64,000 nucleotides of DNA from Eledone cirrhosa (taxonomy: Eukaryota). The stretch spans positions 32,240,001 through 32,304,000 of the forward strand of contig OZ024752.1 of assembly GCA_964016885.1 (NCBI GenBank), read 5' to 3'. Every line of letters starts with the position of its first letter. The first letter of the stretch is position 1. Of the stretch, positions 22,979 to 60,266 are shown one piece after another. Position numbers and translations under genes: made by a program. The notes beneath the pieces are model-generated. The model was not told where the DNA came from, did not search any database, and saw only the letters and a list, made by a program, of their open reading frames with translations.

Positions 22979-23138
22979 TTATCGTTTTGATTCTAAATGT
23001 GAGAGTTCTTTAGAAAACTTCAGTATATCTGGCAGGTTCATTTTAAAATCTGTCTGTAGAATTTTGTAGAAGAACTCTGGTGCCCTCTGTTGGACATTGT
23101 AAAGTTCCTCCAATAGTTCTCCATTAATTGTAGCAAAA
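22979..23138 (-). CDS. ARM-TIR-SAM gene terminal coding exon (160 bp): SFATINGELLEELYNVQQRAPEFFYKILQTDFKMNLPDILKFSKELSHLESKR*
   Basis: Acceptor ggttttcag. Phase 2 matches the previous exon. FxxIxGxxLxxL is a SAM-like motif. TAA stop at 22979-22981. Confidence 0.85.
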
Positions 23139-23188
23139 CTGAAAACCATAAAAAAATACAATACAATTATAAGAATTTAAAAATTTTA

Positions 23189-23730
23189 ATATTGTTATAC
23201 TTGGGGAGGGTCATATTGTTGTAATAATATTGCCAGAAATAATAACAGAACACACTCACTGTTTGGTTGGTTTTCGCTTCTGTATCTTTTATATCTCCAT
23301 AGTTAATTTATTTGGCAATCAATATTTACCATTGACTGACCAACGGTTAAAAATACAGATATAAATACATATATATAGTCAAACAGAGTTCTTTCGTTGC
23401 ACATCTGCAACATCATCAGTTCCTTCCTATTGTGTTGTATTGTAATGTTCACGCCATTCACAGAAAAATGGCGTGAACACAATAGGAAGGAACATGATAA
23501 TAGTACCACTGATGATGTTGCAGATGTGCAACGAAAGAACTTTGTTAGACTATATATATGTATTTATATCTGTATTTTTAACCGATGGTCAGTCAATGAT
23601 AAACATTGATTGTCAAATAAATTAACTATGGAGATACAGAAGCAAAAACCAACCAAACAGTGAGTGTGTTCTGTTATTATTTCTGGCAATATCACTACAA
23701 CAATATGACCCTCCCCAAGTATAACAATAT
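23189..23730. mobile_element. About 540-bp near-perfect palindromic element; half copy at about 60790-60965, fragment at about 46415-46467
   Basis: ATATTGTTATACTTGGGGAGGGTCATATTG ... CAATATGACCCTCCCCAAGTATAACAATAT, with arms pairing along about 230 bp. Confidence 0.85.
23504..23547 (+). ncRNA. Hammerhead-like motif (degenerate stem I) in a fold-back element; mirror copy on minus strand at about 23381-23419
   Basis: Reads TACCA-CTGATGA-T-GTTGCA gatg TGCAAC-GAAA-GAAC-TT-TGTTA. The core boxes are intact, stem II is a perfect 6 bp, and stem I has 4 of 5 pairs. Confidence 0.45.
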
Positions 23731-23854
23731 TTGTTTCGACACACGATTTCATATCAAAAACCTTCCAAAACAAAAATGTTAATAAGTTTAGAGAATTTAT
23801 GTGTCTAAGTATGTATATATATATATACATACTGTAAATATTTAAGTATGTATG

Positions 23855-23889
<35 letters not shown>

Positions 23890-24509
23890 ATATTAGTAAT
23901 AAACGAAAAATATACACTTTATATATTTCATTATATTTTGAAGATGCAAAGTTTTATGTATGACATAAAGCAAAACCTGTTCTCCTCAAACAAAATGTAT
24001 AGAAAATGTATAATTTTTTCCTGATATTCTGGTAGATAAACGAACTTGACAGATTGATGACCACCAGGCATCAGAACTTATGTTTACCGAATTCGCAGAC
24101 CAGACCCCTTCTTCCTCCGGTTAGACCTGTGCGAAATTCCTTCCTTGCTCACATTTCAACCAGGTTTGTTCACGATTCCACCGAATTTATATTCATAGAA
24201 ATCTGGGACTTGTTTCAACCAGGTTTGTTCACGATTCCACCGAATTTATATTCATAGAAATCTGGGACTTGTTTCTTTCTTCTTCATCACTTTCTGTTGC
24301 TTAAACCATTTTGTTTGTTTACCCTAGCGTCCCCTTTATTTACGTGTCCCAACGACTTTTTTTAGCTGTTGCTCGCACCAACCGGAGCCTGAGGTATATG
24401 GTCTTTAAAGCGATGAAATGCCTACGACGGTTGGAAGGCCACTGATGAAGGACAAACTTTTTCATATGTAACCCATTTGCAACGCCGCAGCTCCATTATT
24501 ATCATATTT

Positions 24510-58484: not shown

Positions 58485-58958
58485 ATATTGTTATACTTTG
58501 GGAGGGTCATGTTGCCAATAAGAAACACACGCACCAGTTGCTTTCACTTCAATTTATTATAATAAATTTATAAATCCAGGAATATATAAATTTCCGGTTG
58601 GTTGGTTGGTTCCACAACCAGATGATTGTTCATATATTGTCAAAGTTCTTTCGTCACACATTCTGTGACCTCTTCAATGACTGGGGATTCTTTTCTTTGT
58701 TTTTGTGCCTCTCCTTTGTTCTGTCCTATGCCATCTTGTTTTTGTGTGAGTTCACACACACAAAAACAAGATGTGTGACGAAAGTGTGACGAAAGAACTT
58801 TGACAATATATGAACAATCATCTGGTTGTGGAACCAACCAACCAACTGGAAATTTATAAATTCCTAAATTTATAAATTTATTATAATAAATTGAAGTGAA
58901 AGCAACTGGTGCGTGTGTTTCGTATTGGCAACATGACCCTCCCAAAGTATAACAATAT
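58485..58958. mobile_element. About 470-bp palindromic element with termini related to 23189-23730
   Basis: TATTGTTATACTTTGGGAGGGTCATG ... CATGACCCTCCCAAAGTATAACAATA, with arms of about 175 bp. Confidence 0.85.
58639..58681 (-). ncRNA. Hammerhead-like motif (C3>U variant) in a fold-back element
   Basis: Reads GTCA-TTGAAGA-G-GTCACA gaatg TGTGAC-GAAA-GAAC-TT-TGAC. Stem I is 4 bp and the 6-bp stem II co-varies with the 23.5-kb copy. Confidence 0.45.
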
Positions 58959-59012
58959 CGGTTTCAACACGCGTTTTCAGATAAAGAATCTTGCTAAACA
59001 AATTCAGAAACG

Positions 59013-59059
<47 letters not shown>

Positions 59060-59234
59060 TAGAAAAGGCATCTAGCTGTAGAAACCAAGCCCAAATTAGT
59101 TCTGTATGAGCAAGACATAGTTACCTGACCTCCTGGCATTTCTCACAACAGGACAACTCATCTAACCCATGCTAATGTGGAAAAATGGACATTATATGGT
59201 GATGATGATGATGATGATGATGATATATATTTAC

Positions 59235-60266
59235 CTTCAAGACATCCTGGTTCTTTTTGGATTAATGCTTTGTTCTTGCCATTGAAAGAAAGTGCCCAAA
59301 GTCCATTTATAACTAAAAGTATTTCTTCTTCTGAAAGGGGATTATTTATATATAGATTTTCTTCTTGTAAAAGCCTAACATAGAATGTTAAAATACCATT
59401 TTGAACCAGTTGCACTTTGTTGACATCACTTGCAGACAGGTTAAATAAACTCCTGAGAATTTCTGTTACACACATACCATATTTGCTACTGAAGTGATTT
59501 GGGGAGTTCAAAGCTTTGTCAAAAATATCTAAAATGAAACAGAGCAGGTCACTGTTCGAATTAAGTAATTCGCTCTCTGTCTCATCAACAACATACGAGA
59601 GTACGATGAGAGACTTTGCACGGATCATGTCGAGATCCGACTTGAACAAATGTTGAAGAGCTCTAACTCCTCCACACTCGCGCAGAAGTAAACGGCCATC
59701 ACTGTTGTGGCGCACAACATTGTTCATGATACCTAGAATAGCTTTCACATAGTATTGTTTCTTGTCATCCTCAGAGTATCGTGTGTTTGAAACATTCACA
59801 AGAGCATGCAAGAGTATTGAAATTAAACCATTGTCACAAACATCTTGACAAACTTCACTGTTTATATCACATGTATTCCAGAGAACTGACAGACTTTTCT
59901 TCAGTTTCCGCCACTGTTTTATACTATCTTTGTGAAAGATGTGAACTTGGTGTACACAGAGCCAAATGTTTTTGAAAATTTTGACAAACTTTGATTGGTA
60001 AAGACATAAGGCCACCGATTTTCGTATATGTATGTTTGGATTGTACTGCGAGGCTTCCCACACAACTTTTATATCATTATAACAGTCTGTGTTGAGTATA
60101 TCAATATCTTCTGGAGTGCTGAGTCTTTTCAAACACTGATTCACTTTCAGTAATACTTCTTCCAGACATATATTAGCTTTGTTTTGTGGCGATGATGGTA
60201 ATTTTTCGTTTGTCTCAATGAGCGCCTCGTTACTCTTCGACGATTGTTTGCTTGAACATTTTCCAT
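59235..60266 (-). CDS. ARM-TIR-SAM gene, first visible coding exon (1032 bp): N-terminal extension plus armadillo/HEAT-like helical repeats
   Basis: Acceptor ttttcttcag ends at 60267 and donor GAAG|gtaaat starts at 59234. The frame is open from 60264 (GKCSSKQSS...). ARM-like motifs: LSVLWNTCD, AILGIMNNVVRH, LRECGGVRALQHL, LRSLFNLSASDVNKVQLVQNGIL, INGLWALSFNGKNKALIQKEPGC. The start codon is not resolved. Confidence 0.9.

Follow-up and report, generated by a model that had tools for sequence, protein, structure and literature searches.

A spliced octopod ARM-TIR-SAM gene from an ancient and widespread eukaryotic family: a candidate gated NAD+ hydrolase distinct from SARM1

The minus strand of a 64,000-nt stretch of the Eledone cirrhosa genome (GCA_964016885.1, contig OZ024752.1, positions 32,240,001 to 32,304,000; hereafter the window) carries a gene whose product joins, in this order, an armadillo (ARM) solenoid, a TIR domain and a single SAM domain. 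The gene is spliced, and its product belongs to a family found widely among eukaryotes in which a glutamate at the position used by enzymatic TIR domains is almost never replaced. The reading we prefer, and to which we give about an even chance, is that the protein represents, in octopods, an ancient ARM-TIR-SAM family spread across eukaryotes (clade 10 of a recent TIR classification) with an origin separate from SARM1, and that it would act as an NAD+ hydrolase gated by its ARM solenoid, clustered by its SAM domain and yielding linear ADP-ribose (ADPR).

The preliminary description of the window had proposed seven phase-compatible GT-AG exons spread over 37 kb that join into one open frame of about 620 codons. 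Most of this model stood. When joined, the seven minus-strand exons gave 1,859 nt with a single open frame of 618 codons, and the remaining two frames contained 36 and 40 stops. All seven acceptors consist of a pyrimidine tract followed by AG, six of six donors are GT, the exon entry phases run 1,1,1,1,1,1,2, and a family profile run against the six reading frames of the window matched these seven exons and nothing else. The product was 96.8% identical to Octopus XP_029635431.1 (P0121) over 618 aa without a gap, and 92.1% identical to Argonauta GAB1597992.1 (P0001) across 606 aa; both are annotated 'uncharacterized protein LOC115210823', and the locus itself is therefore not new. What the model lacked was a beginning, since it has no in-frame start codon, and the 12 extra N-terminal residues of its homologues were not found in the window nor in the next 80 kb. 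The first coding exon was located by an exact degenerate pattern, which had one match in the genome and none in the control. It lies outside the window and comprises an ATG and 37 coding nt (12 codons and one base), followed by a GT donor in phase 1, and is separated from the next exon by an intron of 107,231 nt. The complete gene has 8 coding exons and encodes 631 aa. Residue numbers below follow GAB1597992.1, and are identical to the numbering of the 631-aa Eledone protein. The codon of the putative catalytic Glu467 is interrupted by a 6,644-nt intron (36576 / 29931).

To evaluate splicing, we used contigs from four runs of four studies on related species, the runs being labelled 'RNA?' and of small share. 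A contig joining 60266-59235 to 54431-54327 was present in 4 of 4 runs, as was one joining the two SAM exons, 26062-25942 and 23138-22979; the latter contigs left 8 or 14 unmatched letters, which placed the acceptor at 23138. In runs X5 and X20, one contig (2,125 and 2,130 nt, with length and depth equal in both alignments) spanned all four of these exons, with 441 nt separating the second ARM exon from the first SAM exon. As the three TIR exons add up to the same length (123+102+216), the four middle junctions can be inferred as well. Differences between the contigs and the ARM exon fell mainly at third codon positions (33 of the 40 listed, p=2e-10 against one third; another 85 differences stand beyond those listed). 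These results confirm a real spliced octopus gene, and speak against the outcome that would have refuted the earlier proposal, the lack of any spliced link among ARM, TIR and SAM exons.

Table 1. Coding exons of the Eledone ARM-TIR-SAM gene, numbered in order of transcription. Positions are those of the window, except for exon 1, which is given in genome coordinates.
Feature	Position	Strand	Content
Coding exon 1	G000:C12:32407534-32407498	-	ATG; outside the window, 107 kb upstream
Coding exon 2, 1,032 nt, phase 1 to 1	59235..60266	-	Residues 13-356: the disordered N-terminal tail and the greater part of the ARM solenoid
Coding exon 3, 105 nt	54327..54431	-	Last helices of the ARM solenoid, among them the invariant G375 and W378; linker to TIR begins
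Coding exon 4, 123 nt	44031..44153	-	TIR beta-A (ISYQW motif), alpha-A, beta-B (W426, D428) and BB loop; TIR_2 E=9e-7
Coding exon 5, 102 nt	36576..36677	-	TIR alpha-B, beta-C and start of alpha-C; N463 codon 36588-36586; last base opens the E467 codon
Coding exon 6, 216 nt	29716..29931	-	Rest of the E467 codon, remaining TIR with invariant GWLG motif; flexible linker to SAM begins
Coding exon 7, 121 nt, phase 1 to 2	25942..26062	-	Linker and first half of SAM (W559, W567)
Coding exon 8, 160 nt to stop TAA	22979..23138	-	Second half of SAM

Some features of the exons bear on alternative products. The internal exons of 1,032, 105, 123, 102 and 216 nt all run from phase 1 to phase 1, so that in-frame skipping is possible. 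In the O. bimaculoides model P0122, shorter by 41 aa, the TIR exon at 44031-44153 has no counterpart, which reflects either an isoform with a dead TIR or a gap in the annotation. The Octopus sinensis isoform X2 (XP_036357635.1; P0123) has a different 10-residue N-terminus, implying an alternative first exon, which was not located in the 144 kb scanned.

The order of domains was examined with an AlphaFold2 model (mean predicted local distance difference test, 79; predicted template modelling score, 0.57). In this model, a disordered 44-residue tail precedes a solenoid (residues 47-381), a TIR domain (397-523) and five helices (561-630), the single SAM domain being bounded at 559-630, with low-confidence flexible linkers around the TIR domain (383-393 and 530-551). 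The order agrees with the one first proposed. The Pfam domains that had been expected were recovered in part: on GAB1597992.1, TIR_2 was found at E=2e-19 (71 bits) and Arm just above the cut-off, but SAM_1 and SAM_2 fell below it (E 0.07-0.1), and in a set of 49 homologues, with domain matches counted at E<=0.01, TIR_2 was present in 49, Arm in 34, SAM_2 in 19 and SAM_1 in 12. In structural comparison, the solenoid matched designed ARM proteins, Vac8 and the ARM domain of APC with Z 19-20 over about 290 residues, and the ARM profile matched Vac8 at E=1e-21, supporting a modelled three-helix armadillo solenoid. For the TIR and SAM domains, matches were made with the model of a TIR-SAM relative (P0142, 60% identical in TIR). 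Its TIR domain superposed on that of SARM1 with Z 15.5 (root-mean-square deviation (rmsd) 2.1, 122 aligned), and its SAM domain on a SARM1 SAM with Z 10.2 (rmsd 1.8, 70 aligned), on liprin-beta with Z 9.8 and on CNK2 with Z 9.4 (rmsd range 1.6-1.8); the TIR-SAM profile also matches the SAM domains of neurabin and Shank. These values support a five-helix SAM fold, and in the models all three folds stand.

The three domains are not conserved equally. Among 44 non-octopod homologues, the median identity was 62% in TIR, 37.5% in SAM and 29% in ARM, and the stronger conservation of TIR is what would be expected of an active site. Within the less conserved ARM region, a cluster of invariant residues (N195, D293, N295, K296, W336, F340 and W378), mainly Asn, Trp and Asp, lies in the final repeats beside the TIR domain, which suggests a conserved binding or docking face.

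We then considered the putative active site. E467 is in helix alpha-C (462-473 in the AlphaFold2 model), it aligns with the glutamate of the C. elegans TIR-1 motif WVHKE in a weak profile alignment (14 bits), and it is present in all 49 aligned homologues and in 148 of 150 wider representatives. The Ser-Tyr pair of beta-A (S402, Y403) is kept in 149 of the 150 at each position, and the Asp of beta-B (D428) in 148. Judged by sequence, the glutamate that enzymatic TIR domains carry on helix alpha-C is present, consistent with the earlier view of an enzyme-like TIR. Four residues before it, at the position that by sequence register corresponds to the tryptophan of WxxxE, the octopus protein has N463 (NCRTE). 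This position is N in 103, S in 28, A in 14, P in 2 and H in 1 of the 150 (two rows not displayed), and N in 28 and S in 21 of the 49 homologues. The position of AbTir W204 is aromatic in 12 of 12 cyclic-ADPR makers, mutating that aromatic shifts the product to ADPR, and W204A in AbTir and W638A in SARM1 lower NADase activity (10.1101/2022.05.07.491051). N463 is not aromatic, and because the tryptophan is replaced by N, S or A, the product predicted for the octopus enzyme, if active, is linear ADPR. The missing tryptophan likewise disfavours the cyclic-ADPR signalling that had been suggested as one candidate function of this gene.

To place the protein among other TIR proteins, we searched for its relatives. 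The C-terminal half found 415 proteins, and among the 120 matches listed were those of gastropods, bivalves, a chiton, annelids, nemerteans, hemichordates, amphioxus and corals. With TIR alone, and clusters at 50% identity, there were 5,067 matches at E<=1e-3, 2,341 at 1e-10 (which need not all be clade 10) and 327 at 1e-30. ARM-TIR-SAM was the commonest layout among the best 150 relatives (92, with ARM-TIR in 19 and TIR-SAM in 13, many of the proteins being short and perhaps fragments); layouts were called with profiles built from alignment A1, and outside A1 the count was 84 of 142.

In the 2026 TIR atlas of Culbertson et al. (PMC13142454), SARM1 belongs to clade 8, TLR and MyD88 to clade 1 and ThsB to clades 2, 5 and 7, and clades 10-13 are all-eukaryotic and termed uncharacterised. 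Our best non-octopod match, from Lottia (599 aa), and the matches from amphioxus (621 aa) and Capitella (696 aa) correspond to Clade_10 rows of the atlas with ARM-type, TIR and SAM domains; the correspondence is by length for all three, and by the visible TIR sequence too for Lottia and amphioxus. Of the rows found with the alpha-B motif of the octopus protein, 13 of the 14 displayed (20 in all) were Clade_10. The Eledone orthologue was not found in the atlas table by two motif searches, and an Octopus paralogue is present there. Membership of clade 10 is assigned by proxy and from sequence, through the Lottia and Branchiostoma rows of alignment A1, whose non-octopod rows are 58-73% identical in TIR. 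The criteria of the TLR, IL-1R and MyD88 group (clade 1) give a different picture: PF01582 scored 15 bits on GAB1597992.1, under its cut-off of 21, no transmembrane, leucine-rich repeat or death partner accompanies the TIR domain, and TLR-type TIRs of the Eledone genome score at most 16 bits on the family profile.

The 73 of 408 Clade_10 rows examined in sequence, together with motif matches, include sea urchin, amphioxus, Ciona, lamprey, annelid, brachiopod, oyster, limpet, flatworms and the Octopus paralogue, and reach well beyond animals, with Arm-TIR-SAM rows from Chlamydomonas and Micromonas and a HEAT/Arm-TIR-SAM row from Physarum. A role special to cephalopods, as first imagined for this gene, does not fit a family that is eukaryote-wide and has the same order in Chlamydomonas and Physarum. 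The final ARM repeats of the algal proteins share motifs with those of the octopus protein when compared by eye, which suggests that the fusion happened once, long ago. Individual choanoflagellate species each have many paralogues that differ in their ARM N-termini, and at least 8 rows come from one sea urchin species, numbers that would fit a receptor-like family. In the down-sampled table, Clade_10 rows pass from lamprey (1789) to Capitella (2486), with none in the approximately 700 rows between, which include pufferfish and spider; this may point to loss among jawed vertebrates and ecdysozoans. Pattern-limited scans found no credible bacterial or viral family member: of 122 pattern matches among GTDB genomes, a single one was upheld by tblastn, inside an unrelated 1,840-aa open reading frame, and of 116 in viral contigs none was.

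Other TIR sequences of this type were also noted. The Eledone genome contains a paralogous TIR-SAM gene (G000:C2:413889760-413905680, plus strand; loci L017-L020) with two TIR exons and two SAM exon fragments, the TIR exons being 44-52% identical to GAB1597992.1 and having an intron at the same glutamate-motif site; no ARM exon was found within the 60 kb examined. A further TIR exon (L027; G000:C2:173612584-173612748, minus strand) has a related ISYQW start, scores 32 bits on the family profile and resembles a clade-13 spider row of the atlas. In UniRef, the family members P0084, P0076, P0005, P0010, P0016 and P0020 are labelled 'NAD(+) hydrolase SARM1' or 'ADP-ribosyl cyclase/cyclic ADP-ribose hydrolase', labels that look like automatic transfers and not like evidence of activity.

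By analogy with SARM1 and other enzymatic TIRs, the protein might work in the following way. The cytosolic ARM solenoid would sense a trigger, or dock the TIR domain, through the invariant Asn, Trp and Asp residues of its last repeats, and would keep TIR off until the trigger appears. Release would permit SAM-driven clustering that brings TIR domains together, the clustered TIRs would cleave NAD+ at Glu467 to give nicotinamide and probably linear ADPR, and NAD+ depletion or signalling would lead to innate defence or cell death. A prediction of three TIR-SAM copies in complex with NAD, for which the alignment was unused and the controls were not folded, scored 0.27 and 0.24 against a mark of 0.32 and counts neither way. 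Several points weigh against this mechanism. A single SAM need not polymerise, and because tryptophan loss lowers the NADase activity of AbTir and SARM1, the octopus TIR may have little activity or none. The search of the Eledone genome gave only two loci of the family, which is not a receptor expansion. Dictyostelium TirB and TirD were inactive. Nor does the glutamate suffice by itself: a screen covered 154 eukaryotic TIRs that carry it, and of the 61 animal domains, each expressed in isolation in E. coli, 12 were active, the TIRs of TLR2, IL-1R9 and IL-1R10 have the glutamate and were inactive, and most active animal TIRs gave canonical cyclic ADPR (cADPR) without NAD+ depletion; one active protein in the figure bears ARM, and SAM is absent from the figure abbreviations (10.64898/2026.04.20.719644).

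These points can be accommodated in two other ways, both of which we regard as unlikely. The protein may be a non-enzymatic scaffold or adaptor, in which ARM binds a partner, TIR and SAM nucleate an assembly like those of MyD88 or MAL, and the glutamate is structural. The low proportion of active animal domains in the screen and the lost WxxxE tryptophan would suit this explanation, an adaptor role has been hypothesised in print for invertebrate ecTIR-DC and ARM-TIR proteins, and fold alone cannot separate an enzyme from a scaffold TIR, since scaffold TIRs are as near to the P0142 model as SARM1 is (Hydra TRR-2, Z 16.2; IL-1RAcPb, 15.0; MyD88, 14.9). However, the whole S-Y...D...E pocket is near-invariant over 150 clusters under 50% identity, and the screen used isolated TIRs, removed from their clustering domains. 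The family is also present in green algae and amoebae, which to our knowledge do not have the animal TLR-MyD88 pathway. The other explanation, which we hold to be a little more doubtful, retains the gated architecture and makes the TIR domain a signalling cyclase, with canonical cADPR or an isomer serving as second messenger and no depletion of NAD+. The cADPR-forming animal and protist TIRs that made up most of the active set in the screen include domains of mollusc, echinoderm, lancelet, rotifer and choanoflagellate origin, the ARM-bearing protein is among the architectures of the screen's figure (10.64898/2026.04.20.719644), and other near-invariant aromatics of the octopus family (W405 in 143 of 150, W426 in 149, Y458 in 150 and W492 in 146) could stand in for the lost tryptophan. 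In contrast, 145 of the 150 have N, S or A at the position associated with cyclisation, and with no SAM among the abbreviations of that figure, the ARM protein may belong to another family.

It is very improbable that the gene is an orthologue or derivative of SARM1 that has been rearranged and acts in axon death, and the comparisons already largely refute this. None of our observations ties the gene to neurons or to the axon death suggested at first. The three domain types are common to both proteins, SARM1 is among the best SAM matches, and full-length SARM1 ranks 2nd by Foldseek, yet with a template modelling score of 0.28 and rmsd 27. An amphioxus member is named 'NAD(+) hydrolase SARM1' in UniRef. 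A separate SARM1 gene did not turn up in the Eledone genome, where a TIR_2 scan (13 matches among 25 candidates) gave none that was SARM1-like and two exact patterns gave none, exons being split and the patterns strict. Against this, phmmer of the TIR domain against solved structures gave no TIR match at E<=10, and the family profile gives the SARM1 TIR roughly 12 bits, a lower score than those of Cat1 and RPS4. The nearest named relatives are in clade 10 and SARM1 is in clade 8 (PMC13142454). With the full-length profile, Vac8 and beta-catenin were matched at E<=1e-13 and the best stretch of SARM1 was its SAM, a match no better than that to neurabin or Shank and level with liprin and CNK2. 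Domain order, a clade-8 TIR and WxxxE, by which a SARM1 orthologue would be recognised, are all absent. The preliminary description was thus right that this is not a SARM1 orthologue, but its picture of SARM1 domains in permuted order does not survive, given a TIR of a different clade and an ARM profile that fits beta-catenin and Vac8 far better. We also considered that the ARM-SAM chassis of SARM1 might descend from this family, and dropped the idea because unrelated SAMs match equally well and other ARM proteins fit the ARM profile better.

Should the protein prove to be a gated NADase, evolution arrived at the SARM1 design twice, and an old NAD+-based switch for defence or death is common to protists and invertebrates. 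A wider proposal, which we offer tentatively as possible but not probable, is that the family forms a class of intracellular immune receptor-enzymes that predates animals and extends across eukaryotes. It would be a second and independent invention of the SARM1 design, older than SARM1 itself, would have expanded in the manner of NLRs in choanoflagellates and sea urchins, survived in lamprey and disappeared from jawed vertebrates and ecdysozoans, and would kill or arrest infected cells by NAD+ depletion. On this proposal, model organisms would have missed ARM-TIR-SAM because of that loss. The value of the finding lies in the family, with at least 2,341 clusters at E<=1e-10 and a layout extending from green algae to lamprey. 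Two sharp predictions follow from the sequence, an activity that should depend on E467 and a product that should be linear ADPR, and the Chlamydomonas member makes the family cheap to test.

Repeats were also noted in the window. Large tandem arrays lie in or beside the introns at 32765-36500, 48632-52637, 27106-28278, 10022-12537, 19142-20392, 8409-9358 and 2576-3946, with periods of 21, 24, 60, 148, 95, 68 and 18 and up to 178 copies, and result in long spurious open frames. Two degenerate frames, 1232-1729 (plus strand) and 44980-44759 (minus strand), share a VYAPNKESEY stretch, and are probably relics of an endonuclease domain of a long interspersed nuclear element. A short interspersed repeat with many intron copies (54657-55016, 55350-55440, 61514-61981 and others) had very high depth in RNA-like runs, and is presumably a family of short interspersed nuclear elements.

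Proteins of this kind have been catalogued before and, as the preliminary description supposed, remain largely uncharacterised. The numbered ecTIR-DC families reportedly come from Gerdol et al. 2017. They are cited as widespread invertebrate proteins and hypothesised adaptors, 'ARM-TIR' is a category in the immunomes of oyster (PMC4346834) and Aplysia (PMC9334734), with 10-11 listed in the latter, and an amphioxus TIR-SAM cDNA was recovered in 2008. A literature search, with most subscription journals outside its coverage, found no paper characterising an ARM-TIR-SAM protein and none naming five gene ids of family members. Like the octopus protein, the invertebrate ARM-TIR and ecTIR-DC proteins combine an armadillo fold with TIR and are cytosolic and of uncharacterised function. 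These groups are, however, bins of domain content that also contain ARM-Death-TIR-TIR (ecTIR-DC 6), and their accessible descriptions mention neither a C-terminal SAM nor catalysis. The sections of the atlas that were covered call clade 10 uncharacterised and do not discuss its ARM-TIR-SAM layout (PMC13142454).

Among comparable systems, bacterial and amoebal effectors couple a sensor and a clustering step to a TIR NADase. The logic of Cat1, SPARTA TIR-APAZ, TIR-STING and TirC is similar to that proposed here, and Cat1 is the best stand-alone TIR match of the TIR-SAM profile, though a weak one (E=0.0017); their sensors differ from ARM. SARM1, dSarm and TIR-1 have the domain types in common with the octopus protein, their catalytic glutamate, as aligned for TIR-1, is in register with E467, and the TIR and SAM folds of SARM1 superpose. 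In contrast, their order is ARM-SAM-SAM-TIR, with tandem SAMs before TIR, whereas the octopus protein has one SAM after it; the SARM1 TIR belongs to another clade, with approximately 16-20% identity, and has WxxxE in helix alpha-C where the octopus protein has NCRTE, without the tryptophan; and the ARM of the octopus family, which includes algae and amoebae, is not specially related to that of SARM1. Convergence on the same parts is thus a better picture of the octopus protein than a permuted SARM1.

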